From the IMG/VR virus record IMGVR_UViG_3300042521_001523, positions 1-56,742 of that record: a stretch of 56,742 nucleotides of DNA, one strand, 5' to 3'. Positions 793-53,653 of the stretch are shown piece after piece. The position numbers and the translations under genes are program-made. Under the pieces are notes generated by a model. The model had not been told where the DNA came from. It made no database searches and saw only the letters and a program-made list of their open reading frames with translations. Positions within the stretch are counted from its first letter, which is position 1. Each line of letters starts with the position of its first letter. The stretch is from a virus (taxonomy: Duplodnaviria; Caudoviricetes).

Positions 793-1111
793 GATGATCA
801 AGGGGCTGGTAAGGAAGGTGGTCACCTGGGCGCTGAAGGATAAGTCCGCCGTGACGACCGAGTTTGGGGCACGCAATCTGACCGGCATGATCCGCGAGGG
901 CAGCGTACCGGTGATAACAGTGTGGCCGATCTCCAACGGCTACCTGATTGTGAACGGTTATAACCCTATGATGATGAACGACCCCACGATCATCTACGTC
1001 AAGGATATCGCAGAGATTGGTGAGCAGATCGCCACCATGCAGGCGCGTGTTGCGATTGGGGTGCCGAGCACTGTGAAGCTCCGCCCTACCTTCAACATCG
1101 GCAGCCCGTGA
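785..1111 (+). CDS. Hypothetical protein
   Basis: 108 aa ORF overlapping the upstream stop, fills operon gap. Confidence 0.65.
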   Translation: MTEMIKGLVRKVVTWALKDKSAVTTEFGARNLTGMIREGSVPVITVWPISNGYLIVNGYNPMMMNDPTIIYVKDIAEIGEQIATMQARVAIGVPSTVKLRPTFNIGSP

Positions 1112-1134
1112 CTACCAACCCAGAGGAGAGAACT

Positions 1135-2130
1135 GTGAGCAACATCGTTCCCGCTAACATCAAGGTTCCGGCGCACCTCGCGGCGCGCGTCGGCAAGCCG
1201 TCTGCCCTGGCTCAGGCCATGGCCGGTGGCATCACTGGAGGCTCGGACTTCCCGCGCATCTCCATCAAGGGTGCGCGCTTCCGCATCGTTGAGGATGGCA
1301 CCGAGACGGTGATCAACCAGACCAGCCTCGATGTGGTCGTGGTGGGCGCCAACCCGCGCCTGTCCAAGACGTGGTATGCCAAGGAGTGGAACAAGGATGC
1401 CGAGCCTTCGGCACCGGACTGCTACTCGCTCGATGGCGTCGGCCCGAACCCGGAGAGCACCAGCCCGCAGAGCGATCTGTGCGCGTCGTGCAAGTGGAAT
1501 GCCTGGGGCTCCAAGGTGGCTCCGAACGGTCAGCAGCTGAAGGCGTGCTCCGACAAGAAGCGCCTCGCGGTGGTGGCTGCCGATGACGCCACGGGTCCGG
1601 TGTATCTGCTGGAGGTGACCCCGGCTGCGCTGAAGGGCCTGAACGCCTATCAGAAGGAACTGTCGGTGCGGGGCATCGCCCCTGAGATCGTGCGCACGCG
1701 CATCTCCTTCGACACCGATGCGTCCTTCCCGAAGCTGATCTTCAGCTTTGGTGGCTTCCTCGATGAGGCTGCCATGGAGGCCATCGACAGCCTGTCGGGT
1801 TCCGATCAGGTGGCCGAGATCACGGGTGAGAAGGCGCAGGCCGTGCCGGTGCAGCCCGCTCCGGTTGAGGCTCCGCGTCGTGCGCCGCTGAAGACGGTGG
1901 CTGCTCCTGCCCCGGCTCCGGTCGAGGAAGAGGAGGCTCCTGCTCCCGCCCCGGCTGCGCCGAAGCGTGGATTTGGTGCGGCGAAGGCAGCCCCGGCTGC
2001 TCCTGCCCCGGCTCCGGCTGCTGCTCCGAAGCCTGCGGCGAAGGCGGCTGCTGTGGCCCCGGCGGGTGCGTCGTCGCTGGCCGACGAGATCGCTGGCCTG
2101 CTCGACGAGGTGGGAGCCGATGACGCCTAA
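1135..2130 (+). CDS. Putative ssDNA-binding/annealing protein with Cys cluster, Ala/Pro linker and acidic tail
   Basis: GAGGAG SD before GTG 1135; FPRISIKG, C..CASC..C, long AP-rich linker, C-terminal DEVGADDA. Confidence 0.6.
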   Translation: MSNIVPANIKVPAHLAARVGKPSALAQAMAGGITGGSDFPRISIKGARFRIVEDGTETVINQTSLDVVVVGANPRLSKTWYAKEWNKDAEPSAPDCYSLDGVGPNPESTSPQSDLCASCKWNAWGSKVAPNGQQLKACSDKKRLAVVAADDATGPVYLLEVTPAALKGLNAYQKELSVRGIAPEIVRTRISFDTDASFPKLIFSFGGFLDEAAMEAIDSLSGSDQVAEITGEKAQAVPVQPAPVEAPRRAPLKTVAAPAPAPVEEEEAPAPAPAAPKRGFGAAKAAPAAPAPAPAAAPKPAAKAAAVAPAGASSLADEIAGLLDEVGADDA

Positions 2131-2401
2131 GGCCATCGACTTCAACAAGGTCGAAGCCCTCCGTCAGCACTTGATGCTGACGGCAGGGCAGCTGGCACAA
2201 ATGCTTGGGGTCAGCCGCATGACTTACTACAACTGGTTGCGCGGCAAGCCCATCAGCAAGGCCAACGAGACCACCGCTCGTGCGGTGATCCGCAACCTGA
2301 TCTTCCTCATGCACGCGCACCAGTGGCCTTCGGAGGAGATCACCAAGATGACTTCTAAGCAGAGGCACGAACGCCTGCTTGCTCTGCTCGCTGAGCGTTA
2401 A
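2120..2401 (+). CDS. XRE/Cro-type HTH regulator
   Basis: LTAGQLAQMLGVSRMTYYNWLRG helix-turn-helix; ATG 2120 after GAGGTGGGAG. Confidence 0.8.
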   Translation: MTPKAIDFNKVEALRQHLMLTAGQLAQMLGVSRMTYYNWLRGKPISKANETTARAVIRNLIFLMHAHQWPSEEITKMTSKQRHERLLALLAER

Positions 2402-2407
2402 TACACT

Positions 2408-2433
2408 TGGGTGGGGAGTTGCCTCCCCACCCA
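2408..2433. promoter_or_regulatory. 11-bp perfect intergenic hairpin before primase
   Basis: TGGGTGGGGAG-TTGC-CTCCCCACCCA; no U-tract. Confidence 0.55.
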
Positions 2434-2457
2434 CCATAAAACTAGGGTAGGGGAACC

Positions 2458-5326: not shown

Positions 5327-8300
5327 CTATTCGGTCAGGGCGTCCATCAGCTGGCGGATGTCGTCCTGAGCACCACGCGGAGCGGCGCGCAATGCCCGCT
5401 CACCAGCGCCACGCTGGGCTTCGCGGAGTGCCCGGACGGAGTTCGGCACGAAGCGGGTGATCTCCAGGGGCGTGCCCCGGGCACCGTCGTTCCAGTTGTT
5501 GACCGCCTCGACGATATCGCGCGCACCCTGGTTATCGCCACGCATGGTGGCCTTGATCCACGCCTGCCGGTAAGCCGCGACGACCTCCTTCTGGTAGTCG
5601 GACTCGCGCTGCGCGATGCGGATGACATCGTACTGGGTAGCCGCCCGCTCAGGGTAGAAGCCCAGCAAGCGCGTGATGACCGTGCCCGCATCCATCTCCG
5701 GGCTGACCACATAGCCCCGGCGATCCACCACAGCCCCAGAAGAGAGGTAGGCCGAGGTGTCACCCATGATGCGCAGGAAGGTGATCGGCGAGCTACGAGC
5801 CACATCCTCCAGGGTCTTGGTCGAGGAGAACGGGAAGGTGACGACATCACGCGCCGTGCTCGCCAGACCCGTGACGAAGCCCGTTGCCGGACCCAGGATA
5901 TCCTGGAGTTCGCGGGTAACGTTGGCCCCGGCCAGTGCCACGCCAGTGCCCGGGAGGAAGTTGCCTGCCGAGGTGCGAGAGGCCACGTCAGCCGGGACGA
6001 TCTGGTTAACCACGCCGCGCAGGAACACCGCCGACATACCGGGGAAGCTGCCTTCGATGTGGCGGATGATCTCAGCCCGGATGCTGCCCTGGCGGAAGCC
6101 GAGGCCCTGGGCCAACGTGTCGATCAGATCCTCCAAATCCTCAGCGAATGGCAAGCCGGTGGCACCAGCCAGGAGCCACATGGCGCCCAAGGTGCTGAGC
6201 TGCGCCGGGCGAGAGAGGCGCGCCAGCATCTGGATGACCGTGGTCGGGTAGGTCTTGTACATATAGAGGAAGGATTGGATGCCGTTCCTCCACGCGGGCG
6301 GGCGGTTCAGAACCGAGTACTCGCCAAGCGTCAGGTCGATAGACCGAACTGCTTCCTCACGCGCCCGATCAGATGCCTTCGCCTCGCTCAGGCCAGCAGC
6401 AATGGCCCGCTCGCGGAAGAGCCGGTAGGCAGCGAGGAAGGCAGCCCGGCGAGCAGCTTGTTCGGACAGATTAAAGGGCGCCATCCAAGTATCAGCGAAC
6501 CGGCGCATCCAGCGATTGGTCATGTACCCACGCGCCGTGGCGACGAGGGCGTTCGACTGCGCCGGGATGAGTTTACCCTCACGGATTTCGCGGGCGACAA
6601 CCCGGGCTTCCTCAGCGGTCAGGCCATAGCGACGCTGGAGTTCAGGGCTTTGCGCCACGCCGGGCTTCCACGTCTTGGCCAGCGTCGGATCGGTAGGCTT
6701 CGCCCCGGCGTCGTAGAAGTCAGCCCGGTTCATATCCATGCTGGTGACGCCGCGAGCGCCGATCTTGGCGAAGGCTTTGTGGTACTCCGACTGCACTTGC
6801 CCGAGACCGAAGCCGCCACCGAAGGCGTTCTTGGTGTTGTAGGACGCCATGTAGGGCATCCAGTTGGTGTAGGGGCTGAGCAGGTTCAGCGCGCCCTGCG
6901 CCACCGAGGCACCAAGCTGCATCATGCTGGTGTAGGCACGCACGCGAGAGGCGACCGGCCCCGCGCCGAAGTTGGACTCATCCACGAACTGGCTGCCATC
7001 AAGGTAGCTCAGCGTGCCCGCAGCTTGATTGTAGTACACCATGCTGCGACCGGCCCGGCCCTCCGGGTTGGTCGTGCGGAACATATACTCTGCACGATCC
7101 AGTTGCCGCTGTGCGTCCTTCTTCGCTTCGCCGGTCAGGCGGGCGACCTCATTACGCATGCGCGTGACGTTGGCCTCGTCGCCCTCCCACAGCGCACGAG
7201 AGCTGGGCAGGTTGAGGTTCATCAGCTCGCGCAGCGGCTGACGCGTCGTGGTCTTAGCGATGGTGGAGGCCCGCGACTCGATGTGACGCGAGAGCGCGTA
7301 GATACCAGTAGTGTTGTCGAAGCCCGGGGTCTGCGAGAACTCCAGGCGCGTACGCGCCGCGTTCTCCTGGCGGGTCAGGGTGGTGACCAGTTTCTCCATG
7401 ACCTTCGGCGTGGCATCGATGCCGAAGAGGCTCATACCGTACAGGAAGTCCTGGAGGTTCAGCTGCGGATCAGCAGCAACAGCATCCAGCACCCGCCCAG
7501 TCGTTGCCCGGAGCGTCACCTTGGTAGGGACAAACTCACCGTTCGCGTTGCGCGCCAGCAGCTCAAAGGTCTTACCCTTCAGCTCGGTGTTGAACTGCTG
7601 CGCCATGGTGTTAGCGCCGCCTTCATTGTCGAACTGCGAGTAGGCGAGCAGCGCCTGATGGCTATCCTTAACCTCCACCGGCTTGTCACCGACGAACGCC
7701 TGGAGGCGCATCTGGTAGTTGCCCTCGCGCAGCACAGGGATGTAGCCAGTAGCCACACCGCGTCGGGCGATACGCTCGCGCACACCGAGGTTGTAGGTGT
7801 TCAGGTAGAACTGCTTGACCTGATTTTGCAGGTCGAACTTCATCTCCTCAGGGAGATCCTTCCGGCGACCCTTCATCGCCACCATCTTCTCGATGAAGGC
7901 ATCTGCCGCAGACTGGCTGTCGAAGAACTTGGCGACCTCCGCGTTGCGATCAGTGCCCCGCCCGATGAAGGCGGCGTTCACGGCGGCAAGGAACTTGTCG
8001 GCCTCAGCCATGGAGGCCGGGTTCAGCACCTGGATGCCCGCCGAGTTGATCTCAGCGTCCTTGCTGTAGAGATCGCCGTACTTCCTCACGTAGGCCGTGA
8101 CGAACGCCTTGTCGGCGTTGTCGAGCTTGGCGTCCTTCATCAGCTGCCCAAGCTCGCGGTAAGATACGCGACGGTTAGCCGCGAGGCTGGCGTACTCAGC
8201 CTGGAGCATCTCAAATTCAACATCCATGACCGCCCGGCGGGCGCGCACGTAGAGTTCGTAGTCGGCGTCGGAGAAATCCTTGAAGCCAGCAAACTTGCGA

Positions 8301-11300
8301 GAGATGGTTGCGGGCTTGCCGTCGAGCCCTTCATACGAGTGGGTGTAGGAGAACCCGTTGCGAATCTGCTCCTTCGTCAGCAACCCCGCCTTGAAGAGCC
8401 GCTCAGCCTCAGCGTTGTTGCGCACGATGTTGCCATCGTCGCTGACAGAGAACAGCTTCTCGCCGCGCAGCAGCTTGTTGTCGAAGTTGGCGATGGCATA
8501 GCTACGGCCCGCGTACATGGCTTCCGAGATGCGCGCCTGGGTCTTTTCCGGGGCATCCATCAGGGGGCGCAGGTACTCGTTGAGGCGGTCCTTTGTCGCC
8601 ATGGTAATCTGGTTGGCCAGACCCATCAGCCCGTCGAACTCCATCAGACCCGGGTTCTCCAGAGCGCGGTAGTTGGCGAGGCTGAAGAACTTGGCCTTGA
8701 TGTCGTCGAAGGTGTTGGCGAAGTCCTTCCCCTTCTCGAAGATGAAGTTCAACGTCTCACCAAGGTTGGCTGGCCATGCGCCAACCTGTGCCTGGAAGAT
8801 CTGAGCCCTGGTGCTTGCCGAGAAGGCCGCAGTTGGGCTGAAGCGACCCGTACCCGCCAGACCAGTCTCGACCGCGTGCAGGCGCTGCGCGACTGCCTCG
8901 GCATTGAAAGTCACACCCTGGCTCCCGTCGCGGACGTAGCGGCGGGACTGGTCTAGGAAGTAGCGCGTGGCGCTGTCGCCGAAGCGCACACCAAGGCTGC
9001 TCAGGATGTTCTTAATAGCATTCCACACCCGCATGACTGTGTTGGTCGCCAGGGTGGCAGCGTAGTCGGAGAGGTACTCCTCGACCGCTTCAGCCTTCGA
9101 CAGGCCACGCACTTCCATAGCAGCGTCGGCTGCTGCCTGTGCCTGCGGGTCGGTGTCGTAGATACGCTCCATAAGCGCGTCGAAGCGGTTGCCCGGCATG
9201 ATGCCGCGCATACCGAAGTGACCAAAGACCTCGTGCGCCAGTACGAAGCGGAGGTGCTGCTCGTTGGCGATGCGGTCGGTGAAGATGATGACGTTGCCGT
9301 CGCCAAAGGAGTAACCAGCAGCCTCTGCCGTGGCGAAGTCACCCTGCGAGCGAGCAGCATTGGCGCGAGCGTAGAGCGCAGGGTTGGTGCGGCGCAGCTC
9401 TTCCTGATTAGCGACGACCGTGACGTTGGGCCGTGTGGCCAACTTCGACAGGAAGGTCTGCACCAGCATCCGGGCGCGGCCCGCACCCAGTGGGCGCACT
9501 GGCGACCCATCCACGTTGCGCGCACCGGTCAGGGTGTTCCAGCTGTTCAGCGACCAGCGGCCTGCCTCGGGCGTCGCCTTCGACACCACGGGGCGAATGC
9601 CAGTCTGTTCATCACGAGGTCCGAAGTTGAAGAACTCCGGGCCTTCCTTGATGTAGTCGCTGAGCTTACCCGTGCCGTAAGCCGGGTCGGTGCCTGCCTT
9701 CTTCAGACGCGTCCATGCCTGCGACGCCTGGAGGCGCATCGCAGCGGTGAGTGGTGCACCCGCGTTGACCTGTTCGATGATGGTGCCCAGCGTGAGGAAG
9801 TCATCATCGAGCTGGAGCTTGTCGCCAGCCTCCTTCCCAAGCCGCTGCTGCCGGTCAACGACCTCAGCCGCCTTATACTCGAAGGAGTCAAACCCAACCT
9901 CATTCTCCAGGTAGTCCTTGGCAAACGCCTTGGCTTCCTTGGAACCATCCTTCGACCAGCCAATCAGAGCAGCAATCGCCTCGATACGGCGACGCCCTTC
10001 CGTCAGGTTGGCTTCAGTCGCCATGGCCTGCGCCTCTTCCAGTTCATTCTGCGGAAGGGCTTCAGGCTCCGGGGTCGGTGCAGCCGCGCGCTGCTCAGCG
10101 GCGGGGGTTGCGGATGTTGCTACTGGCGCCGCCACCGGGGCGGCGGGTGCCTCTAAAGGGCGCGGAGGGGCTGCCTCCGCAGCCGGGGCAGGTGCGGGTG
10201 TCGGGGTTACTTGGGGTTGCGCTGCCGTCCCGCCTTGGACAGGGCGATTGCGACGGCCTGCTTGACCGCCGCCTGCTTGTTCTTTGGCCTGCTTGAGCCG
10301 ATCCTGCCCTTCGCCTGCCAGTCGTCCACCAACGTCTGTACGTTGGCCGACACCACCTTGTTCGACTTCCCTCGCTTTAGCGGCACTGGCACGACCCCTC
10401 TTCAGATTGGTGGGAGTTGCGGGAGCAGCAGGGGCTGCGGGCTGCACCATGGCAGGCGCGGCCAGCGCAGGTGCGATCTCAGCAACAGGTGCAGGCAGAG
10501 CCGTGGGGATCGCCGCTTCACCCGGAGCCGTCTCGGCAACAGCGGCAAGCTCAGCCCGGAACCGGTTTGCCTGCGCAGGCGCCAGTGCCTGGACACGCTC
10601 AAGGAAGCTGGCTTCGCTGTTTCCGTACCCTACCAGGACCTCATCCTGCTGCGCCTTGGTCAGCTGGTTGAACTGACGCACCACGGCCCGGCGGGCGTTG
10701 TCGGCGATGCGGTTGCGCCCGGTGGCCACGGCTTCCGCATCCAGAGCGAGCGGCTGGTTGGCCGTAGCCTGAGCCAGCGCCGCTTCGTAGTCCCGCTCAG
10801 CCGCAGTCGGGGCAGGCGGTTGGGCCGCACGCTGAGCCTCAGCCTGCCGAAGTTCCATCTGGCGACGGAGCGCCAGCAGCTGGTTACCAGCCTGGGTCTC
10901 GCCAAGCTGTGCGGCGGGTGCTGCCTGAGGAGCAGGACGGCGCAGTGCCTCCTGACCCGGAGCCGTAGCCATACCAGGGACAACGAAGCTCGCAGGCGTG
11001 CGAGGGGCCGGGCGCTGAGGCACCACGGGCGGGGGCATAACCGGTCCCGGCGTCGGGATGAAGCCAAACAGATCACTCTGTCCGGCAGGCACCGGAGTTC
11101 CAGGTGCCGGTGCCTCAGGAGGCAACGCTGCGGTTGGCGGTGAGACGCCACCAAACAGGTCCAGCTGCCCAGGCTGGGTAAGGAACGGAAGCGTCAGCTG
11201 TTCGCTAGGCTGGGCAGGGGCAACCGTAGGCTGCGTAGCAAACAGATCACCCTGCGCGCCGGGTGGCGGCGGAGCAACTCCAAACGAAGCACCCTCACCC

Positions 11301-12745
11301 AACGGGAACAGTTCGCCCTGAGTACCGGGACGCTGCGCTGGAAGCGCAACGCGCCCTTCCAGAATAGGCGAAGCGCCGAGGTCAGCACCGGGGAACAACT
11401 CGCCCTGCGCAGCCGGGGGTGTAGCAGGAGGGGTTGGCTGCTGACCCTGGTTTTGGAGGATGTCGCGCGGCTCACGCCCGGTCTCGATGAACCGACCCGC
11501 ACCACCGAAGCCCGCACCCAGCAGAGCACCAGCACCAGCGGCGATCAGCGCGTTCTCGCCGTACCGCTCAACGGCATAAGGAGCGAGGGCCTTCCAATCG
11601 TTAGCCGTCAGCAAGCTACGGAACTGCGGGTCGAAAAGCGCCTGCTCCACCACCGTCTGGAGCGCCTCGGTCCCGGCTTCTTCCAGGCCACTGCGAACCG
11701 CAGCACCGCCCACCGACTTGGCCCGCGCCAAGCCCGTGACTGCACGCTGGCTGGCTTCTTCGATGGCACCGGACAGGGTGCGCGAGATGCTGCCCGCCAC
11801 ACGGCCAGGAGCGATGGCATCGATGAGGCTGGTCGCCAGGGCGCCGCCAGCAATCTGCAACTGGATCTGCGAATTGGTCACGTCATAGGCGGGCTGTCCA
11901 TCCGGGGTCCGCGCATCACGCGCCGCCTCATAGAAGGTGTTCAGCTGCTGCGGGAAGCTGGTGGCAAGGAGACCGCCCACCGCACCAATGGTGCGTGCAC
12001 GCGCCAGGGTAGCAGCCGTAGCTGCACCCGCAGCAGCACCTGCCGGACCGGCGACAAGACCACCCACAGCGCCACCGGCCAGGGCCGCCGCACCACTCGT
12101 CAGGACCGAGGGTACACCCTCAATCGCAGCGTCCACGATGTTGTTGAAGAGGGAGTTGCTGCGCTGGATCAGCGCCGACCGCTGCTGGTCGAACTCATCC
12201 TGACCCGTGATAGCTTCACCAACCCCGGCAATAGCACCGCCTATCTGGGGCGCACCCAGCATCTCAATACCACGACCCACGCCGCCAACGAGACCACCAA
12301 CAGCAGCACGACCGCCACGCGCCAGCAGCTCACCCGTACCCCGGCGCTCAGAAAACCCAGCAAGGTAGTCGGTGAAGCCGCGCTGTGTCAGCGGCTGCCA
12401 GCCAGCGCCCGAAGGCGGGGCAGAGGGGGTAAGCGACTGCGACGCCTGGAGCGCCGAACCCACATCACGGATATCGAACGCCCGCCCACCAGCGAACATC
12501 TGGTTGGTGACCGGGTTGTAGTAGGCCGAGGCCGCAGGAGCCGCAGGAGCCGCAGGAGCCGCAGGGGGGATGAGGCCGGGCGTGCCAGCACCCACCCGAC
12601 CCAAGGTCTGCTCCCGGAACGCAGCCCAATCCGCCTGTGACGGAGCAAGGTTGCCAAGGCCAGATGCCTGCGTGACGCTTCGCGGCGCCCCGGAGATCTC
12701 CAGCCCAAGCGCAATCTGGTCCGGGGTGGCGAAGAAATCAGACAT
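5327..12745 (-). CDS. Very large internal virion/DNA ejection (polyvalent-type) protein with zincin-like motif
   Basis: 2472 aa, last late gene; LAHEVFGH followed by AVEEYL; Pro/Ala-rich linker with repeated QGELF/QGDLF. Confidence 0.7.
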   Translation of the reverse strand: MSDFFATPDQIALGLEISGAPRSVTQASGLGNLAPSQADWAAFREQTLGRVGAGTPGLIPPAAPAAPAAPAASAYYNPVTNQMFAGGRAFDIRDVGSALQASQSLTPSAPPSGAGWQPLTQRGFTDYLAGFSERRGTGELLARGGRAAVGGLVGGVGRGIEMLGAPQIGGAIAGVGEAITGQDEFDQQRSALIQRSNSLFNNIVDAAIEGVPSVLTSGAAALAGGAVGGLVAGPAGAAAGAATAATLARARTIGAVGGLLATSFPQQLNTFYEAARDARTPDGQPAYDVTNSQIQLQIAGGALATSLIDAIAPGRVAGSISRTLSGAIEEASQRAVTGLARAKSVGGAAVRSGLEEAGTEALQTVVEQALFDPQFRSLLTANDWKALAPYAVERYGENALIAAGAGALLGAGFGGAGRFIETGREPRDILQNQGQQPTPPATPPAAQGELFPGADLGASPILEGRVALPAQRPGTQGELFPLGEGASFGVAPPPPGAQGDLFATQPTVAPAQPSEQLTLPFLTQPGQLDLFGGVSPPTAALPPEAPAPGTPVPAGQSDLFGFIPTPGPVMPPPVVPQRPAPRTPASFVVPGMATAPGQEALRRPAPQAAPAAQLGETQAGNQLLALRRQMELRQAEAQRAAQPPAPTAAERDYEAALAQATANQPLALDAEAVATGRNRIADNARRAVVRQFNQLTKAQQDEVLVGYGNSEASFLERVQALAPAQANRFRAELAAVAETAPGEAAIPTALPAPVAEIAPALAAPAMVQPAAPAAPATPTNLKRGRASAAKAREVEQGGVGQRTDVGGRLAGEGQDRLKQAKEQAGGGQAGRRNRPVQGGTAAQPQVTPTPAPAPAAEAAPPRPLEAPAAPVAAPVATSATPAAEQRAAAPTPEPEALPQNELEEAQAMATEANLTEGRRRIEAIAALIGWSKDGSKEAKAFAKDYLENEVGFDSFEYKAAEVVDRQQRLGKEAGDKLQLDDDFLTLGTIIEQVNAGAPLTAAMRLQASQAWTRLKKAGTDPAYGTGKLSDYIKEGPEFFNFGPRDEQTGIRPVVSKATPEAGRWSLNSWNTLTGARNVDGSPVRPLGAGRARMLVQTFLSKLATRPNVTVVANQEELRRTNPALYARANAARSQGDFATAEAAGYSFGDGNVIIFTDRIANEQHLRFVLAHEVFGHFGMRGIMPGNRFDALMERIYDTDPQAQAAADAAMEVRGLSKAEAVEEYLSDYAATLATNTVMRVWNAIKNILSSLGVRFGDSATRYFLDQSRRYVRDGSQGVTFNAEAVAQRLHAVETGLAGTGRFSPTAAFSASTRAQIFQAQVGAWPANLGETLNFIFEKGKDFANTFDDIKAKFFSLANYRALENPGLMEFDGLMGLANQITMATKDRLNEYLRPLMDAPEKTQARISEAMYAGRSYAIANFDNKLLRGEKLFSVSDDGNIVRNNAEAERLFKAGLLTKEQIRNGFSYTHSYEGLDGKPATISRKFAGFKDFSDADYELYVRARRAVMDVEFEMLQAEYASLAANRRVSYRELGQLMKDAKLDNADKAFVTAYVRKYGDLYSKDAEINSAGIQVLNPASMAEADKFLAAVNAAFIGRGTDRNAEVAKFFDSQSAADAFIEKMVAMKGRRKDLPEEMKFDLQNQVKQFYLNTYNLGVRERIARRGVATGYIPVLREGNYQMRLQAFVGDKPVEVKDSHQALLAYSQFDNEGGANTMAQQFNTELKGKTFELLARNANGEFVPTKVTLRATTGRVLDAVAADPQLNLQDFLYGMSLFGIDATPKVMEKLVTTLTRQENAARTRLEFSQTPGFDNTTGIYALSRHIESRASTIAKTTTRQPLRELMNLNLPSSRALWEGDEANVTRMRNEVARLTGEAKKDAQRQLDRAEYMFRTTNPEGRAGRSMVYYNQAAGTLSYLDGSQFVDESNFGAGPVASRVRAYTSMMQLGASVAQGALNLLSPYTNWMPYMASYNTKNAFGGGFGLGQVQSEYHKAFAKIGARGVTSMDMNRADFYDAGAKPTDPTLAKTWKPGVAQSPELQRRYGLTAEEARVVAREIREGKLIPAQSNALVATARGYMTNRWMRRFADTWMAPFNLSEQAARRAAFLAAYRLFRERAIAAGLSEAKASDRAREEAVRSIDLTLGEYSVLNRPPAWRNGIQSFLYMYKTYPTTVIQMLARLSRPAQLSTLGAMWLLAGATGLPFAEDLEDLIDTLAQGLGFRQGSIRAEIIRHIEGSFPGMSAVFLRGVVNQIVPADVASRTSAGNFLPGTGVALAGANVTRELQDILGPATGFVTGLASTARDVVTFPFSSTKTLEDVARSSPITFLRIMGDTSAYLSSGAVVDRRGYVVSPEMDAGTVITRLLGFYPERAATQYDVIRIAQRESDYQKEVVAAYRQAWIKATMRGDNQGARDIVEAVNNWNDGARGTPLEITRFVPNSVRALREAQRGAGERALRAAPRGAQDDIRQLMDALTE
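12531..12566. repeat. 9-bp tandem repeat GCCGCAGGA x~4 (encodes PAA repeats)
   Basis: Seen directly. Confidence 0.85.
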
Positions 12746-31818: not shown

Positions 31819-32748
31819 TTAGGCGAAGGTCACAACGGACTGGGCCAGAGCTTCCGGCTTCACCACCTTGTAGCCATAGACCTGAAGGCCACGGATGACG
31901 TTACCGAAAGTGCTCTCCGAGCGGATGGTCTCCATCTCCGTCATCTGCGACGCGAAGGTGAGGCCCATCTTGGTCCCAGCGACGATGTTGTACTTCCCAC
32001 CCGTGTCAACCTTCAGGTTGTGGCTGACATAGAGCGTGAAGCGATCCACCATGCCCAGGCGGCCATTGCGGATCATCGAGGTGCCGTCACCGACCAGCGA
32101 CGCATCCTTCAGCTCGGACTTCTTGATGAGGCCAGCCATGCGGGCCGGGATCACCAGGAAGCGACCGGCTTCCGGGCAGTTCGCCTCGTCGAGCACGGTA
32201 CCCAGATCGACGATCAGGTCCACCACCGAAGCGGTGCCGCCAGCGCCGTCCTTCGTCACCGTCAGCGGAGAAGCCGTGGTGCCGAGGTTGAACGCGCCGG
32301 AAACTGCACCCGCCGCCGTGCCCTTGTTCAGAGCAGCGATGTCGGGGAGCATGTCGGTCAGCACGCGCTGGTCGATCTTGATCTTCATCTGCTCGGACGC
32401 ATCCTTGGACCACATGTCCATCAGCTTGATGTCCGACTGAACGCGATCAATGTCATCCTCAACGCAGGCGAAGTACTCGCCCTTGTCGATGACCAGCTGG
32501 AGCTTCGGCTTGTCGGGGTTCTCCACGACAATGCCCTGACCCTTCACGTACTCACGGATCGTGATGTTCGGGGTCGTACGGATGTTCACCGTATCACCCT
32601 GGTTGCGGATCTCACCCTCATAGTCGGTGTTCGAGATCGCAGCCAGAACGGTGGCATCGTAGAAGTTTTCGATCAGCTTGCCGGACCAAATCTCGGGGAT
32701 GAAGTTACCCGAGTAGTTGGGGCGGCCAGGAGCAACAGGGTAGCCCAT
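31819..32748 (-). CDS. Major capsid protein
   Basis: NFIPEIWSGK, NTDYEGEI..GDTVNI, RGLQVYGYKVVKPEAL; follows scaffold. Confidence 0.88.
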   Translation of the reverse strand: MGYPVAPGRPNYSGNFIPEIWSGKLIENFYDATVLAAISNTDYEGEIRNQGDTVNIRTTPNITIREYVKGQGIVVENPDKPKLQLVIDKGEYFACVEDDIDRVQSDIKLMDMWSKDASEQMKIKIDQRVLTDMLPDIAALNKGTAAGAVSGAFNLGTTASPLTVTKDGAGGTASVVDLIVDLGTVLDEANCPEAGRFLVIPARMAGLIKKSELKDASLVGDGTSMIRNGRLGMVDRFTLYVSHNLKVDTGGKYNIVAGTKMGLTFASQMTEMETIRSESTFGNVIRGLQVYGYKVVKPEALAQSVVTFA

Positions 32749-39865: not shown

Positions 39866-40084
39866 ATGACACCGGGTTACAAGGCTGGTTGGGCTGCCTT
39901 CCAGCAGTACGTCCTCACTATACAGGCATTCGGGGACGAGGATGCACTTTACGACGAGCTGCCGCAGCTGCGGCGGGAACTGGAGCGAGTACGCGACCAC
40001 GGCATCGACTACATGACGGACTTCCAGGAGGGTTGGGACGACGCCGCCGACCTCGCCGAGGACCAGGACCTCAGCCTCGCTTGA
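39866..40084 (+). CDS. Early acidic hypothetical protein
   Basis: 72 aa, GGGAG SD, very acidic C-terminus. Confidence 0.7.
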   Translation: MTPGYKAGWAAFQQYVLTIQAFGDEDALYDELPQLRRELERVRDHGIDYMTDFQEGWDDAADLAEDQDLSLA

Positions 40085-40089
40085 CACTG

Positions 40090-40114
40090 ACCCCGCCGCA
40101 AGGCGGGGTTTTTT
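40090..40114 (+). terminator. Intrinsic terminator with GCAA loop
   Basis: ACCCCGCC-GCAA-GGCGGGGT-TTTTT. Confidence 0.88.
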
Positions 40115-40199
40115 ATTGCCTTGACACCAGGGCTGTGCGCCGCCTCCGCGTGCTCGCTGCGCTCGCCATACGTCGGGGGCCTCTAGGTCAGCAAAGTGC

Positions 40200-40675
40200 G
40201 CGCATAATGGCGTTCTATAGGTCTGACGGCCTATGGATAGGAAAACAAGTACAACAATCTGTAAAAATAGCCTGTTTTTTTACATTTTATACGTTTGTCT
40301 CCGTATACTGTAAAGTTAGATCTTTACAGATTGTAGGCTAGTTGACACGTAAACACCATGGAAAACCAATGGGTTCCAGGATCTCTCTCTCTATCTATAA
40401 TCTATATTTTCTAACAATCCGTAAAAAAGGAATTTTAACCCTTTCCTCATGCGCGAGGCCCCTGGTGGATACGTAAAGCATGTACAGTGCATTCCCCTTT
40501 ACACCCCCCAACTCTCTTCTAATTTGTGGCGCTCTTTACGAATATTTTTTAGATTATTAGATTGTTGACAGATCCTGCCTCGTAACCCACTAATTTTCCA
40601 CCCTTTTAACAATCTGTGCGCTACCGCGACGTTATACATACAAAATAGATCACGACATCATAATAGATTGTTGCG
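40200..40675. other. AT-rich non-coding region with repeated AACAATCT motifs; putative replication origin
   Basis: Most AT-rich long intergenic stretch; motif copies in both orientations. Confidence 0.55.
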
Positions 40676-40694
40676 ACCATTGATGGGGCCGGAC

Positions 40695-40723
40695 TTGACA
40701 CGGCGGGGCCGCCGGGCTAGCCT
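40695..40723 (+). promoter_or_regulatory. sigma70-like promoter of main early operon
   Basis: TTGACA-N17-TAGCCT. Confidence 0.75.
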
Positions 40724-43303: not shown

Positions 43304-43314
43304 GGAGGATGAAC

Positions 43315-43545
43315 ATGCGTAGGTATCGGTACGTCGAGCGGGATAGTGCGACCGGCACTACCCTCTACGAGGCGACTGGTAACAGCATCGAGGAGACCGC
43401 CGATAAGGTGGGCTTCGATTGGGATGATGCCGCCAATCTCTGGGCTGGTGTTCAGCCTGGGTCGCCGGTCATCGACCGCGACATGGATGGCAAGGGTGGC
43501 ATCACATACAGCCGAGAGTTCCACATTGATATTGCGGAGGGATGA
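43315..43545 (+). CDS. Hypothetical protein
   Basis: GAGGAGG SD spacing favours second ATG. Confidence 0.7.
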   Translation: MRRYRYVERDSATGTTLYEATGNSIEETADKVGFDWDDAANLWAGVQPGSPVIDRDMDGKGGITYSREFHIDIAEG

Positions 43546-43547
43546 AC

Positions 43548-43856
43548 ATGCGTAGGACCATCAAGACCCGTCCCGTAGAGGACCACATCGCGCTCATCGA
43601 GGTTCCGGCCTCGGCTCAGGCGTACACCAAGTGGATGCACTACGAGTACCTGTCGTGCCGACAGGCCGCCATTCTGGAGGTCGTCAAGGCCAACCCTGGT
43701 GCGACCATTGGGGCCATTGCTGCGGTGCTCAACGTCAACAAGCCGTCAGTCACCAGGGCTGCGGATAAGCTGTCCAAGTGGAACCTGCTCCACCGCAGTA
43801 CCGACCTGATGGATAGGCGGCTGATGCTGCTCTGGCCCGGACCTAACAAGGGCTAG
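43548..43856 (+). CDS. MarR-like winged-HTH regulator
   Basis: TIGAIAAVLNVNKPSVTRAADKL...DRR. Confidence 0.75.
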   Translation: MRRTIKTRPVEDHIALIEVPASAQAYTKWMHYEYLSCRQAAILEVVKANPGATIGAIAAVLNVNKPSVTRAADKLSKWNLLHRSTDLMDRRLMLLWPGPNKG

Positions 43857-43920
43857 GCCGAAACGTAGGGTCCGACCCCCTGCGTCCAGCGGTAACGCCG
43901 CTGCTGATGAGGCCACTTGT
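43846..43920 (+). ncRNA. Type II hammerhead ribozyme, predicted cleavage after C43886
   Basis: GGCC-GAAAC-stem III-GUC-stem I (CAGCGG/CCGCUG)-CUGAUGA-GGCC; all core bases and three helices present. Confidence 0.92.
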
Positions 43921-43951
43921 CAGAAACAAACTTACAAGAGGTGAACATGCA

Positions 43952-44944
43952 ATGCGTCCGACTCTTTTAAAAGATACACTCGCTGCGCTGATCCGTGTGG
44001 GCCGCACGGTCTGCGTTGAGGGGGCACCCGGTGGCGGCAAGACCACCATCGCCCGAGAGGTCGCCTCTGATCTAGGTCGGGGCTACATCGAGATGCACCT
44101 GCCCACCATGCTGGTGGAGGACTTCGGCATCCCGGAGATCAGTGGCTCCACGCTGAGCTACAAGCTGCCTGACTGGTACCCTGCGCAGGGCAGCCGCCAC
44201 GATACCCCTGAGGGTGGGTTGCTGTGCTTCGACGACCGCAATCAAGCCGGTGCGGACATCCAGAAGGTTCTGGCCAACATCTGTCAGGCAAGGACGCTGC
44301 ACGGCGTACCCATGGCTAACGGCTGGAGCGTCATCTCCACCGGCAACAGGCAGAGTGACCGGGCAGGGGCTAACCGTGTGCTGGGCCACCTCCGCAACCG
44401 TGAGACGGTGCTGGAGATGGAGACGCACCTCGACGACAGCTCGGCCTGGATGATTGCCAACGGTGTACGGCCTGAGGTGGTGAGCTTCCTGCGCTTCCGG
44501 CCTGGGTTGCTCCATGACTACGACCCGCAGCGTGATCAGAACCCCACGCCACGGTCCTGGGTGGAGGGTGTCTCGGCTGTGCTGGGCGTGGTGCCTGCTG
44601 ATGCTGAGTTCGAGTGCTTCAAGGGCGCTGTGGGTGAGGGCGCTGCGGCTGAGTTCGTGGGGTTCCTGCGCATCTTCCGCAAGCTGCCCAACCCTGACGC
44701 CATCCTGCTCGACCCCAAGGGGTCGGTGGTGCCGACCGATCCGGCGACGCTCTACGCCCTGTCTGGTGCCTTGTCTGCCCGTGCAAGTTCGGGCAACCTT
44801 GACCGTGTTGTGGCGTACTGTGAGCGGATGCCGCCCGAGTTCAGCGTGCTGACCGTCTCCATCGCAGCGCGCCGTGACCCGTCACTGGCCAGCACCCAGG
44901 CATTCACGACCTGGGCCGTAAAGCACCACGAAGTGCTGTTCTGA
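43952..44944 (+). CDS. MoxR-like AAA+ ATPase
   Basis: GAPGGGKT, CFDDRN, STGNR, PTPRSW; SD at 43938. Confidence 0.85.
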   Translation: MRPTLLKDTLAALIRVGRTVCVEGAPGGGKTTIAREVASDLGRGYIEMHLPTMLVEDFGIPEISGSTLSYKLPDWYPAQGSRHDTPEGGLLCFDDRNQAGADIQKVLANICQARTLHGVPMANGWSVISTGNRQSDRAGANRVLGHLRNRETVLEMETHLDDSSAWMIANGVRPEVVSFLRFRPGLLHDYDPQRDQNPTPRSWVEGVSAVLGVVPADAEFECFKGAVGEGAAAEFVGFLRIFRKLPNPDAILLDPKGSVVPTDPATLYALSGALSARASSGNLDRVVAYCERMPPEFSVLTVSIAARRDPSLASTQAFTTWAVKHHEVLF

Positions 44945-44957
44945 GGAGGATAGAACA

Positions 44958-45809
44958 ATGCAGCTCAACGACCGCGCCCTGCTGGTGCAGCTCTCCGTCT
45001 CTCAGTGGACGGCCCGCAAGTACGACAAGCGCGTCTCGCAGCAGGCGACGACGCTCTACCATGCCAGTGCTGAGGCAGGGCGCTTCAACAAGTCCCTGCT
45101 GCCGCTCAACGACTACCTTGAGCGGGTGCACGCCAAGAGCAACGCCATCCGGCAGGACTTCTACTCCAACACCCTGCCCTGGGCGATGGAGGGGGCGCAG
45201 CTGCTGCCTACCTCCAACTACCTCAGCTTCATCACGTCCTTCCGCAAGGCCAAGGCTGAGTGGGAGGCCCTGGTGGCTGACTTCGTGTACAACTACCCGG
45301 CACTGAAGGTGCAGGCTGCCCGGCTGCTGGGTGGCATGTACTCGGACAGTGACTACCCGGCGGATGACGAGATCGCCAACCGGTTTAGGATGGATATCGC
45401 CATCTTCCCGGTGCCTACCAACGACTTCCGGGTGGAGCTGAGTGGGTCGGAGATGTCCCGCATCCAGCAGGACATCACGGCGCGGCTGGTGCAGGCTCAC
45501 ACCCTGGCGACCAAGGATGTCTGGCAGCGGCTGTATGAGCGGGTGGAGACCATCTCCCGCCAGTGCAGCAACCCCAAGGGGCGCATCTACGACAGCATGT
45601 TGGAGCACGCACGGGAACTGTGTGACCTGCTGCCTCGCCTCAACATCGGCGATGACCCCAACCTTGAGAACATGCGGCAGGAGGTGGAGGGCAAGCTGGC
45701 ATCCCTCAGCACCGACGCCATCCGCAATGATCCCACGGTGCGCCAGAGTGCAGCGGACGACGCTGCTGCCATCATGGATAAGATGCGCGCCTTCATGGGA
45801 GGGCTGTGA
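44958..45809 (+). CDS. DUF3150-like protein
   Basis: LLVQLSVSQWTARKYD N-terminus, helical, between AAA and VWA genes. Confidence 0.6.
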   Translation: MQLNDRALLVQLSVSQWTARKYDKRVSQQATTLYHASAEAGRFNKSLLPLNDYLERVHAKSNAIRQDFYSNTLPWAMEGAQLLPTSNYLSFITSFRKAKAEWEALVADFVYNYPALKVQAARLLGGMYSDSDYPADDEIANRFRMDIAIFPVPTNDFRVELSGSEMSRIQQDITARLVQAHTLATKDVWQRLYERVETISRQCSNPKGRIYDSMLEHARELCDLLPRLNIGDDPNLENMRQEVEGKLASLSTDAIRNDPTVRQSAADDAAAIMDKMRAFMGGL

Positions 45810-45810
45810 C

Positions 45811-46923
45811 ATGGACCTCATGAAACGCTTGGCCAAGGCCAAGACCAACCTGATCCTTCAGCACCCCTTCATCGGGACCGTGGCACTCAACATGCCCATG
45901 GTGCTGGACGAGCGTGTCCCCACAGCGGCGACCGATGGGAAGACCGTGTGGTACAACCCGCACTTCCTCAAGGATCTGACTGACGAGGAGGTCACCTTCC
46001 TCGTGGCGCACGAGTGCTTCCACCCCATGCTGGAGCATATGTACCGCCTCAAGGGCCGCGACCACGGCAAGTGGAACAAGGCGGCTGACTACGTAATCAA
46101 CCAGCTCCTGGTGGATGAGCGCATCGGCAAGTTCATCAAGGGCGGCTGCCTCGACAGGACGCTGTACGACGCAGGCAAGGGTACGTCTGAGGGTATCTAC
46201 GCCATCCTGCCGGACAGCGACGGCAGGGACGGTGCCAAGGGTGATGGCCCTGGCGGTATCGGCAACGATCTGCTGGAGCCGGAAGGCTCCCCTGCTGAGC
46301 AGGCACAGGCTCAGGCCGAGTGGCGAGTGAAGGTCGCCCAGGCAGCGCAGGCTGCCAAGATGATGGGCAAGATGTCAGCCAACATGCAGCGCCTCGTCGA
46401 TGAGGTGTTGCAACCCAAGGTGCGCTGGCAGGATGTGCTGCGTAGGTTCATGCACCGGGCCAAGACCAGCACCCGGAGCTGGGCACGACCCAACCGACGC
46501 TTCCTGGCGCAGGGTCTCTATCTGCCGAGCGTATCCGGTGAGGCGCTGGGTGAGGTGGTGGTAGCGGTGGACTGCTCAGGCTCCATCAGCCCCCGTGTGG
46601 TGGCTGAGTTCGCTGCGGAGATCAGGGCGATCCATGAGGACACCAACCCGGTCATGCTGCACATCGTCTACTTCGACAGTGAGGTGTGCCACTACGACCG
46701 CTACGCACCCACTGACACGGTGACCATCACGGCACGTGGCGGTGGAGGCACGGCCTTCTCGCCGATCTTCAAACACGTTGCAGACAACTCGGTGGCACCG
46801 GTCGCCTGTGTGGTGCTGACCGATCTGTACTGCGACGACTTCGGCCCGGCACCGGATTACCCGGTGATGTGGGTAACCAACGGTGCGACCAAGGCACCCT
46901 GGGGTGAGGTGGTCAAGCTGTGA
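45811..46923 (+). CDS. Metallopeptidase-VWA protein (DUF2201-like)
   Basis: TAATDG, AHECFH (HExxH), MIDAS DCSGS, GGGGT, LTD. Confidence 0.85.
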   Translation: MDLMKRLAKAKTNLILQHPFIGTVALNMPMVLDERVPTAATDGKTVWYNPHFLKDLTDEEVTFLVAHECFHPMLEHMYRLKGRDHGKWNKAADYVINQLLVDERIGKFIKGGCLDRTLYDAGKGTSEGIYAILPDSDGRDGAKGDGPGGIGNDLLEPEGSPAEQAQAQAEWRVKVAQAAQAAKMMGKMSANMQRLVDEVLQPKVRWQDVLRRFMHRAKTSTRSWARPNRRFLAQGLYLPSVSGEALGEVVVAVDCSGSISPRVVAEFAAEIRAIHEDTNPVMLHIVYFDSEVCHYDRYAPTDTVTITARGGGGTAFSPIFKHVADNSVAPVACVVLTDLYCDDFGPAPDYPVMWVTNGATKAPWGEVVKL

Positions 46924-47111
46924 GCGAGGGCACGCTCATCACCATCGGCCTCACCCTCTGCTTCTGGGTGGGCTGGCTGGAGTGGAGGCTGCGTCGTGCT
47001 GATGAGAAGTGCGACCAGCTCTGCCACCTTCTCGTACACATCGCCTACGGTCGGCTCACCATCCGGGTGGACCGTGACCGCAAGGTGCACATAACACCAA
47101 CTGGGAGATGA
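46920..47111 (+). CDS. Small membrane-anchored protein
   Basis: 63 aa, N-terminal hydrophobic helix. Confidence 0.6.
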   Translation: MSEGTLITIGLTLCFWVGWLEWRLRRADEKCDQLCHLLVHIAYGRLTIRVDRDRKVHITPTGR

Positions 47112-51503: not shown

Positions 51504-51770
51504 ATGCCAAAGACCACGTTCAACGCAACCAACACTGTCTACACTGTCACCACTCCGAGAACAGCAACCGGCACCTTCAGTACTGCTGAGTGGAATCAAC
51601 TCGCCGATATGCGAGACATCGCCAGGACGAATGTAAGAGATGTGCTCGACCGCGAGTTCCCGCCCGAGCTGCGGGAGTTCCTGATCTGGCTGGTCAACAA
51701 CGACGCGCACATCAACGCCAAGTTCATGGCGTTCAGGGCGTGCAAGCGGATCGGCGTGGAGATCAAGTGA
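51504..51770 (+). CDS. Hypothetical protein
   Basis: SD GAGGTGA at 51492. Confidence 0.65.
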   Translation: MPKTTFNATNTVYTVTTPRTATGTFSTAEWNQLADMRDIARTNVRDVLDREFPPELREFLIWLVNNDAHINAKFMAFRACKRIGVEIK

Positions 51771-53653
51771 TGGATATCGTCACCATCGATCTGGAGACCT
51801 ACTACGACCGCGAGTATTCGCTGTCGAAGATGACGACCGAAGCCTACGTGCGCGATCCGCGCTTCGAGGTGGTCGGTGTTGCCATCAAGGTGAACGGGTT
51901 CCCGACTGACTGGTACAGCGGCTCCGACCCGGGCAAGTTCCTGCGCCAACTCAACTACCGAGATAAGGCGATCCTCTGCCACAACACCGCCTTCGACGGT
52001 GCGATCCTGTCGTGGCACTACGGCATCCGCCCGAAGCTCTGGCTCGACACTCTGTCGATGGCGCGGCCACTGCATGGCAGCACGATTGGTGTGTCGCTCA
52101 AGGCGCTCGCCACGCACTACGGCCTTGGTGAGAAGGGCGACGAGGTGCTGCGCACGCTCGGGATGCGAAGGGCTGACTTCACGCCCGACGCGATGGCACG
52201 CTACGCTGAGTACTGCGTGAAGGATGTGGACCTCACCTACGCGCTGTTCCGCAAGCTGGCCAAAGGGTTTCCCTCGCAGGAGATCCATCTCATCGACACC
52301 ATCCTGCGCATGTACACAGAGCCTTCGCTGGTTCTGGATACCGATCTGCTGAACAAGCACCTCGACGAAGTGGTGACGCGCAAGCAGGCGCTGTTGGATT
52401 CCTTCGGTCAGGCTGGTGACGACGACACAAAGTCCCTGCTGATGTCGAACGAGAAGTTCGCAGCATACCTACGCGATTGTGGTGTGACGCCGCCGACCAA
52501 GATCAGCAAGACCACGGGCAAGCCCACTTACGCCTTCAGCAAAACCGACAACGTGTTCACCTCAATGGTGGAGCATCCTGATGAGCGTGTCTCCACAGCG
52601 GTCGCTGCTCGCCTTGGTGTGAAGTCCACCATAGAGGAGAGCCGCACGCGCTCTCTGCTCAGTGTCGCGTCGCGTGGGCCGCTGCCCATCATGCTCAACT
52701 ACTACGGTGCGCACACTGGTCGCCTGAGCGGTGGCGACAAGATGAACCTCCAGAACCTGCCGCGTGGCGGTGCGCTGCGACGTTCCTTGTGTGCGCCCGA
52801 TGGCAAGCTGTTGGTGGCGTGCGACTCGTCGCAGATCGAAGCGCGTGTGGTGGCGTGGCTGGCAGGGCAGAGCGATCTGCTTGAAGCCTTCGCACAGGGG
52901 CGTGATGTCTACAGCGAATTTGCCAGTGCGGTGTACCAGCGCAAGGTCAGCAAGAGCGACAAGCTCGAACGCTTCGTTGGTAAGACCTGCATTCTTGGCC
53001 TGGGCTACGGCATGGGTGCGGCGAAGTTCCGCGACACGCTGGCGCTCGGCATGGGCGGCATCAAGGTGGAGATCGAGGAGGTCGAAGCCTTGCGCATCGT
53101 GAAGCTCTACCGTGAGAAGAACTCTCGCATCGCCATGCTGTGGACCCGCTGCTCCAGTGCGCTCAACAGCATCGCAGGCGGCATGGAGTTCGACATCGCG
53201 CCGAAGGTGCTGGCGTCGCTGGTCACCACGAAGGAAGGCATCCGCCTGCCTAACAACCTCGCTATCCGCTACCCGGCGCTGCAAGAGACCGACCAGAACG
53301 GGTACGTGTATGCCAGCGACCAGCGTCAGTTCCGCGAGGCGCTGAGGGCGCGCGTGGTGGGCGAGCCTGTAGAGGCCGACAAGATGACCCGCATCTACGG
53401 CGGCAAGGTTGTTGAGAACATCGTGCAGGCCGTGGCGCGCATCGTCGTCACCGACCAGCTGGTGGAGATCAGCAAGCGGTACAAGGTCGTGCTTCAGGTG
53501 CACGACGAAGTGGTCATCGTGTGCGACGAGGATGAGGCCGAGGAGGCCAAGGCGTTCGTGATGGGCGTGATGTCCACACCGCCTGAGTGGGCCAAGGGCC
53601 TGCCCGTCGCGTGCGAAGCTGACGTTGGTAAGACCTACGGAGATGCGAAGTGA
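51770..53653 (+). CDS. polA: Family A DNA polymerase with 3'-5' exonuclease
   Basis: Exo DLET, HNTAFD, YCVKD; motif A DSSQIEAR; motif B RFVGKTCILGLGYG; motif C VHDE. Confidence 0.93.
   Translation: MDIVTIDLETYYDREYSLSKMTTEAYVRDPRFEVVGVAIKVNGFPTDWYSGSDPGKFLRQLNYRDKAILCHNTAFDGAILSWHYGIRPKLWLDTLSMARPLHGSTIGVSLKALATHYGLGEKGDEVLRTLGMRRADFTPDAMARYAEYCVKDVDLTYALFRKLAKGFPSQEIHLIDTILRMYTEPSLVLDTDLLNKHLDEVVTRKQALLDSFGQAGDDDTKSLLMSNEKFAAYLRDCGVTPPTKISKTTGKPTYAFSKTDNVFTSMVEHPDERVSTAVAARLGVKSTIEESRTRSLLSVASRGPLPIMLNYYGAHTGRLSGGDKMNLQNLPRGGALRRSLCAPDGKLLVACDSSQIEARVVAWLAGQSDLLEAFAQGRDVYSEFASAVYQRKVSKSDKLERFVGKTCILGLGYGMGAAKFRDTLALGMGGIKVEIEEVEALRIVKLYREKNSRIAMLWTRCSSALNSIAGGMEFDIAPKVLASLVTTKEGIRLPNNLAIRYPALQETDQNGYVYASDQRQFREALRARVVGEPVEADKMTRIYGGKVVENIVQAVARIVVTDQLVEISKRYKVVLQVHDEVVIVCDEDEAEEAKAFVMGVMSTPPEWAKGLPVACEADVGKTYGDAK

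Follow-up and report, generated by a model that had tools for sequence, protein, structure and literature searches.

Natural type II hammerhead ribozymes, together with a pseudoknot between loop I and the tail, were described in 2011 (Perreault et al., PMC3088659). According to that account, clusters of such hammerheads flank single prophage genes, long phage transcripts were proposed to be processed into shorter messages, and rapid cleavage of the construct used depended critically on the pseudoknot at 0.5 mM Mg2+. The idea was repeated in a 2019 review, which speaks of differing stabilities and translation after processing (PMC6765202). Three type II hammerheads of Desulfovibrio vulgaris are reported from cyPhyRNA-seq to cut in cells, and at least one of the three loci adjoins phage-derived genes (PMC8782182). 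The structure of a pseudoknot-containing hammerhead has been solved, and its distal contact is the pseudoknot (PMC11300833).

The hammerhead presented here, from a lake-water phage genome, shares with the type II form of Perreault et al. the core, the permutation, the site between same-strand phage genes and the proposed role. It differs from the majority form of that report, which has the loop I/tail pseudoknot, in that the pairing partner of its tail is the catalytic strand, and from the clustered prophage hammerheads in being a single copy (PMC3088659). The D. vulgaris hammerheads provide a direct precedent for activity in cells, the likeness being one of ribozyme type and phage-gene context (PMC8782182). 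The solved pseudoknot hammerhead (PMC11300833) resembles the copies that precede the same ATPase gene in six related phage loci (L011, L012, L021, L023, L028 and L058), not the lake-water copy. The kind of hammerhead and its proposed message-cutting role were thus already published in 2011. For the hairpin formed by the tail, no description in natural hammerheads was found in the literature searched.

The virus record is a complete genome, 56,742 bases long, and has direct terminal repeats. It is present in lake-water metagenomes, and the sequencing runs listed for it are DNA runs with no RNA run among them. The whole of this stretch is referred to below as the window. Terminase, portal and other large genes are encoded on the strand opposite to the block that contains the ribozyme. 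A 2,472-aa ORF on the minus strand (5327-12745) had no Pfam match at E 1e-5. On the plus strand the genes of the ORF list abut or overlap from about 40.7 kb on. Between the leftward and rightward gene blocks lies a non-coding region (40080-40701) which looks A+T-rich by eye and carries a terminator-like hairpin (40089-40110) as well as CTTGACAC at three sites, each of them on the plus strand. This region is probably the control region driving transcription of the rightward operon. The relevant genes and signals are as follows.

Plus strand, 5' of the MarR gene: proteins of 540 aa and 332 aa, then a 78-aa ORF (ORF list)
43542-43856, plus strand: MarR-family winged-helix regulator, 104 aa (Pfam MarR 1.4e-10, MarR_2 2.6e-10; PHROG 1687)
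43854-43856, plus strand: TAG stop of the MarR gene, overlapping the first G of ribozyme stem II
43936-43943, plus strand: Shine-Dalgarno-like AAGAGGUG, 8-9 nt 5' of the ATPase ATG, read from the sequence
43952-44944, plus strand: AAA_5/MoxR-like ATPase, 330 aa (Pfam AAA_5; PHROG 1297, 2.9e-62)
44958-45809, plus strand: 283-aa protein with no family assigned (weak, sub-threshold DUF3150 hint)
45442-46923, plus strand: protein with DUF2201_N (putative metallopeptidase) and DUF2201 (VWA-like) domains (Pfam 1.4e-47 and 3.2e-25)
51590-53653, plus strand: family A DNA polymerase; further small genes also lie in the rightward block

Within 43309-47111 the abutting or overlapping genes leave a single sizeable gap, the 95 nt that separate the MarR stop from the ATPase start, and it holds the hammerhead. 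The preliminary description had placed the ribozyme inside an operon, overlapping a MarR-like stop and cutting 65 nt upstream of an AAA+ start. All of this agrees with the gene map: same-strand genes are tightly packed around the site, no promoter-like or terminator-like sites were found between about 40.1 and 47.5 kb, the TAG at 43854-43856 shares the first G of stem II, and 65 nt separate the predicted cut (43886/43887) from the ATG at 43952. Its gene labels fared less well. The DUF3150 label of the 283-aa protein corresponds to a sub-threshold hint (11.8 bits where the cut-off is 24.9; E 0.15), and the protein labelled VWA is DUF2201_N plus DUF2201, the latter VWA-like. The true start of this protein is probably near 45.8 kb, the domains beginning at residue 128 of the longest ORF. 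The ATPase ribosome-binding site had also been matched to a small RNA; no antisense match to this stretch was found in the 56,742-nt window at up to 2 mismatches. An in-frame AUG at 43907, inside the core CUGAUGA, was considered as an alternative ATPase start that would add 15 codons, and was rejected. It is probably unused, since it lacks a Shine-Dalgarno sequence, which the ATG at 43952 has, and since the alignment of the relatives begins at the latter. The ribozyme region gave no match to cultured phages by blastn. With the ATPase protein, the only matches in cultured phages were MoxR-like ATPases of less than 30% identity, those ranked highest coming from Vibrio, Acinetobacter, Salmonella and Shigella phages of about 71-79 kb.

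The hammerhead occupies 43856-43914 on the plus strand, and every conserved core base is present. Its parts, all on the plus strand, are listed with the evidence used for them, where R1 is the covariance model described further below.

43846-43850 and 43916-43920: possible stem II extension ACAAG/CUUGU, 5 bp, the 5' strand lying in the last MarR codons
43855: A directly 5' of stem II, the middle base of the MarR UAG stop
43856-43859: stem II 5' strand GGCC, positions 11.4-11.1 (sequence, descriptor, model R1)
43860-43862: core G12 A13 A14, GAA (sequence, RF02276 alignment, model R1)
43863-43885: stem III hairpin from A15.1 to U16.1, 8 pairs and a 7-nt loop
43886: C17, the last base of the GUC triplet 43884-43886; cut predicted at 43886/43887 from motif position
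43887-43903: stem I hairpin, CAGCGG (43887-43892) with CCGCUG (43898-43903), 6 pairs and the 5-nt loop UAACG
43904-43910: core C3 U4 G5 A6 U7 G8 A9, CUGAUGA (sequence, RF02276 alignment, model R1)
43911-43914: stem II 3' strand GGCC, positions 10.1-10.4 (sequence, descriptor)
43916-43923: tail CUUGUCAG, which pairs with CUGAUGAG at 43904-43911

The arrangement is that of type II, with the 5' and 3' ends in stem II and with stems I and III capped by loops. By the descriptor, stems I, II and III have 6-7, 4 and 8 pairs. The strands of stem III are 43863-43870 and 43878-43885, and its 8 pairs count A15.1-U16.1 (A43863-U43885) and one U-G wobble. The pairs that abut the core are G43911-C43859 (10.1-11.1) and C43887-G43903 (1.1-2.1). 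The element thus runs from the stop codon of one phage gene towards the ribosome-binding site of the next on the same strand (MarR stop 43854-43856, ATPase start 43952). Loop I and the tail are complementary over at most 2 bp in this copy, and no pseudoknot of 4 or more pairs can be drawn. When the sequence was read, all hammerhead elements named in the preliminary description were found where it had put them. The extension of stem II that it proposed does exist at 43846-43850/43916-43920 and contributes 1.6 kcal/mol in the nearest-neighbour model, but it is not conserved, being absent in L013 and reduced to 4 pairs in L002; its 3' strand CUUGU (43916-43920) is also part of a better-supported alternative hairpin, which is treated below.

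A type II descriptor of our own was run on both strands of the window and gave one match, at 43856-43914. In 300 dinucleotide-preserving shuffles it gave none, relaxed stem lengths included. For the covariance model R1, 7 hammerheads from other phage loci were used, and neither this genome nor the subclass to which its copy belongs is represented among them. With filters off, R1 scored the site at 32.4 bits (E 7.7e-7). The runner-up in the genome scores 12.4 bits, and the genome is accordingly taken to hold exactly one hammerhead. The search with Rfam Hammerhead_II that had been suggested as a check did not return the site: at the gathering cut-off Rfam had no match in the whole window, and RF02276 gave 19.3 bits against a cut-off of 37, a score obtained only by searching a 79-nt stretch. 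The RF02276 alignment is full length, with gaps falling in the loops and in the 3' tail, which according to Perreault et al. is the part that joins loop I in the pseudoknot (PMC3088659), and the low score is attributed to the absence from this copy of the usual loop I/tail pseudoknot. A first pass of RF02276 over the record did not pick up the true site; its one match, of 10.6 bits at 32224-32279, was dismissed as chance. On the complete core, the shuffles, R1, the orthologous copies and the covariation described below, the assignment of 43856-43914 to the type II hammerheads, as had been proposed, is strongly supported.

Relatives of the ATPase gene were collected from IMG/VR (234), of which 80 loci with 68-80% identity, aligned from residue 1, were kept. 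Clear type II hammerheads are present in 11 of the 80 (L002, L011-L014, L021, L023, L027-L029 and L058), the L002 copy by descriptor match only. Eight loci have a hammerhead directly 5' of the ATPase gene (L002, L011, L012, L013, L021, L023, L028 and L058). Three copies in L058 clear the RF02276 cut-off with 45.8, 40.6 and 37.7 bits. Five further descriptor matches among the ATPase loci have stems of 2-4 bp and were set aside as chance-like. A pseudoknot complementarity of 4-5 bp (UGGCU/AGCCA) is found in L011, L012, L021, L023, L027, L028 and L058. The copies in L002 and L013 belong to the same subclass as the lake-water copy and stand at the orthologous site, and their stems I and III differ from it by several double changes that preserve pairing. 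The remaining 69 of the 80 loci are without a hammerhead near the gene, and most of them couple the ATPase tightly to a conserved small upstream gene.

Several further observations were made on these loci. The closest ATPase relatives (L003-L010) have no hammerhead but do have a gap before the ATPase. In L003-L009 a conserved promoter-like element lies in the hammerhead slot, about 40-70 nt before the ATPase start; in L005 (2931-2959) it reads TTGACA-17-AATGAT with an upstream TG, and the others have GATGAT or CATGAT. Dense hammerhead arrays, with roughly one copy per small gene, occur in L027, L029 and L058 (three each within 1.7 kb), in L089 (nine at 800-5300) and in L100 (four at 2913-4012), whereas the lake-water genome has one copy. 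Rfam at gathering with fast filters gave 0 matches in the 20 loci L002-L021, despite R1 scores of 38-81 bits for L011, L012, L013, L014 and L021. These blanks therefore reflect the filters and the cut-off, not absence, and blank searches of this kind are weak evidence where short ribozymes are concerned.

A pattern of the GGCC stem II and the core retrieved at least 120 stretches in viral contigs and at least 120 in prokaryote genomes. The prokaryote-genome matches listed come from many bacterial phyla and some archaeal MAGs. By descriptor the viral set contains at least 143 unique hammerheads, of which at least 130 lack the UGGCU-type loop and form the subclass of the lake-water copy. It is marked by an A before a 4-bp GGCC stem II and by a stem I of 6 bp whose loop reads UNNNG. 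Among the matches listed, A precedes stem II in 129 of 130 copies, 113 of 130 have 6 pairs in stem I and 5 nt in its loop, the first base of loop I is U in 126 and the last is G in 106 of 130, and H17 is C in 118 of 130. The placement also recurs among the matches listed: in 108 of 130 copies the end of an upstream ORF (50 codons or more) falls between -12 and +5 of the ribozyme start, the commonest layout being a stop overlapping the first G of stem II (37 copies), as here. A Shine-Dalgarno sequence and the start codon of an ORF, again of 50 codons or more, follow within 120 nt in 90 of 130 of the matches listed, where the median distance from cut to start is 58.5 nt, compared with 65 nt in the lake-water copy. 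The nine subclass copies of L089 score 28-39 bits with RF02276 and three of the nine reach 37; the subclass thus straddles the Rfam threshold, with the lake-water copy at the low end.

An alignment was made of 97 matches, consisting of the lake-water copy and matches from 83 further loci. In this alignment, which was fitted to the model and in which stem II is fixed by the pattern that retrieved most of the loci, 98.1% of cells are paired, as against 34-40% when the partners are slid, and compensatory changes are seen in 19 of 22 pairs. As a separate observation, A43855 and U43893 occupy near-invariant positions and could form the stem I/stem II tertiary contact that is otherwise missing.

The minimum-free-energy fold of the region has no stem II. 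Instead CUGAUGAG (43904-43911) pairs with CUUGUCAG (43916-43923) in a hairpin of 8 bp, including 2 G-U pairs, which covers C3-G8 and excludes the active fold. With the nearest-neighbour model, which omits core and tertiary energies, the alternative fold of the lake-water copy is at -30.7 kcal/mol, compared with -27.7 for the hammerhead (-29.3 with the stem II extension), and the pair probabilities are 0.004 for stem II and about 0.98 for the alternative hairpin. As the alternative fold is the more stable, some fraction of transcripts may never cut. The hairpin is also present in L002 (2963-2980, CUGACG/CGUCAG) and L013 (2962-2979, CUGAUG/CAUCAG), and between these two loci N7 and its tail partner have changed together.

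Among the matches listed, a hairpin of at least 6 contiguous pairs from C3 is found in 48 of 130 subclass copies, compared with 2.5% of shuffled tails, and is absent from the other 82. The 48 copies come from 48 loci, namely the lake-water phage, L002, L013 and 45 of L082-L201. In the prokaryote-genome set it is found in 7 of 36 unique hammerheads among the matches listed (shuffled tails, 3.4%). The alternative fold beats the hammerhead in 45 of the 48 hairpin copies among the matches listed, by a median of 1.9 kcal/mol. Among the matches listed, tails with NUCAG within 10 nt combine with N7 as C7:G in 31 copies, U7:A in 10 and the U7:G wobble in 1, with no mismatch; the association between N7 and tail has a Fisher's exact value of 7.5e-9 with relatedness ignored. 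Clustering of the 48 copies among the matches listed at 80% identity of their variable parts gives 26 clusters, of which 16 are all C7, 9 all U7 and 1 mixed. The variable parts of L187 and L197 are 95% identical, yet one has U7:A and the other C7:G.

Over the whole set the signal is smaller. The pair count over the 128 listed copies with a 4-bp stem II is 57.8% versus 57.0%, and 15 of 500 shuffles are as high; this weak signal is put down to the hairpin being carried by only about a third of copies and to A being common after GGCC. The N7 pair alone stands out among these 128 listed copies, with 17 double changes against 9.0 +/- 2.1 and none of 500 shuffles reaching that value. Any pairing of tail and core in the 3' product occurs in 100 of 130 copies among the matches listed, as against 688 of 1300 shuffled tails, a modest excess.

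A second tail motif, AG-(2-5 bases)-GUCUC, was seen in nine hammerheads among the matches listed (L082, L086, L119, L130, L139, L143, L167 and L192), all without the first tail hairpin. When the 3' product was folded, its partner in 6 of the 9 cases was G8-A9 together with the stem II 3' strand (GAGGC). Its link to N7 is partial, with C7/A in 3, C7/G in 2, U7/A in 3 and U7/U in 1.

A large subclass of the phage type II hammerheads, to which this copy belongs, may carry a two-state switch in which a tail of 5-8 nt right after stem II pairs with C3-G8 in competition with stem II. Selection would keep the pairing, since the joint changes of N7 and its tail partner extend over at least 26 diverged lineages. 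This generalisation is put forward tentatively, at somewhat short of an even chance. If it is true, there are two possible effects of the switch: an irreversible cut whose new 5' end is capped by a stack of two hairpins, or control of the fraction of operon messages that is cut.

For the lake-water phage it is considered likely that a genuine type II hammerhead within the long message of the rightward operon cuts after C43886 and separates the two halves of the operon. The transcript would fold three helices around the canonical core and cut itself after C43886. The upstream piece would keep the MarR stop, and its 3' end would be the stem III hairpin, bearing a 2',3'-cyclic phosphate. Its downstream counterpart would begin with a 5'-OH at the base of the stem I hairpin, with no unpaired 5' base, and would carry a 65-nt leader, the ribosome-binding site and the genes for the ATPase, the 283-aa protein and the DUF2201 protein. 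Once cut, the pieces would be joined by no more than the four GGCC pairs of stem II. The tail CUUGUCAG could then pair with CUGAUGAG, freeing the upstream piece and leaving two adjacent hairpins at the new 5' end; in the predicted fold of the 3' product the tail hairpin does form beside the stem I hairpin. Bacterial messages with a 5'-OH, or with a hairpin at the very 5' end, are degraded more slowly by pathways that depend on that end, and a 3' hairpin slows 3' exonucleases. By these effects the operon halves would acquire separate lifetimes, and separate translation is also expected. The closest relatives have a promoter-like element in this slot, which fits a need of the ATPase module for a 5' end of its own. 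The splitting of the polycistron and the uncoupling of the stability of the ATPase message, which the preliminary description had offered as its interpretation, are plausible and restate a published hypothesis (PMC3088659, PMC6765202).

The tail hairpin may also be read in another way, as the mark of a bistable, attenuated ribozyme. The hairpin would then form before the cut, and only a set or conditional fraction of transcripts would be cut, giving control of rate or dose and not a lock that follows cleavage. The tail emerges merely 2-10 nt after stem II is completed, the alternative fold is favoured in nearly all hairpin copies listed (45 of 48, and with a probability of about 0.98 here), and the covariation of N7 with its tail partner places the pairing under selection. 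A hairpin that forms after the cut accounts for the same covariation, however, and the energy model on which the preference rests leaves out the core and tertiary contacts. The hairpin is moreover dispensable for the basic job, as 82 of 130 copies among the matches listed do without it. Attenuation by alternative pairing is familiar from the Alt pairings of HDV and from the inactive folds of viroid hammerheads. The likeness of the lake-water copy to these lies in a neighbouring strand that takes up ribozyme bases by pairing, so that the active fold cannot form. On balance attenuation is judged a serious but rather unlikely account of this copy.

A more sceptical reading of the cleaving hammerhead proposed here is that the element is structural RNA only, an intergenic stabiliser or spacer which does not cut or cuts too slowly to matter. 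The absence of the pseudoknot and the sub-threshold Rfam score would be in keeping with this, and so would the 4 of 18 consensus hammerheads that were inactive when tested, according to Perreault et al. (PMC3088659). Against it, every catalytic base is retained in this copy and throughout the subclass, and the stems are free to change, which is the pattern predicted by selection for catalysis. GUC is the standard cleavage triplet, and H17 is C in 118 of 130 of the copies listed. A purely structural role is improbable on these grounds.

A cut-and-join reaction yielding circular or spliced RNA was raised by Perreault et al. for the clustered prophage hammerheads, but the text of that paper reports that such products were not detected (PMC3088659), and a circle or splice needs two cut sites, where R1 with filters off finds a single hammerhead in the 56.7-kb genome; this is very improbable here. 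Chance resemblance, to which only the Rfam E-value, not significant for the whole window, lends any colour, is negligible in view of the 300 shuffles with 0 matches, the R1 E-value of 7.7e-7 and the same motif in the same slot of relatives.

The synthetic insulator RiboJ consists of a ribozyme with a hairpin behind it, which together give a message a standard 5' end. The lake-water copy is unlike RiboJ, and unlike the HDV and viroid cases, in that the partner strand is a tail of 5-8 nt right after stem II, that it lies in a phage mRNA and that it covaries with N7. The ribozyme adds one well-placed example to a class whose role in phages is only inferred. The case is cleaner than most, as the genome is complete and the single copy stands at the sole sizeable gap of a packed operon. 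The covarying hairpin bears on the function of natural mRNA hammerheads, which may be tuned or locked by alternative pairing, and on the design of ribozyme insulators.
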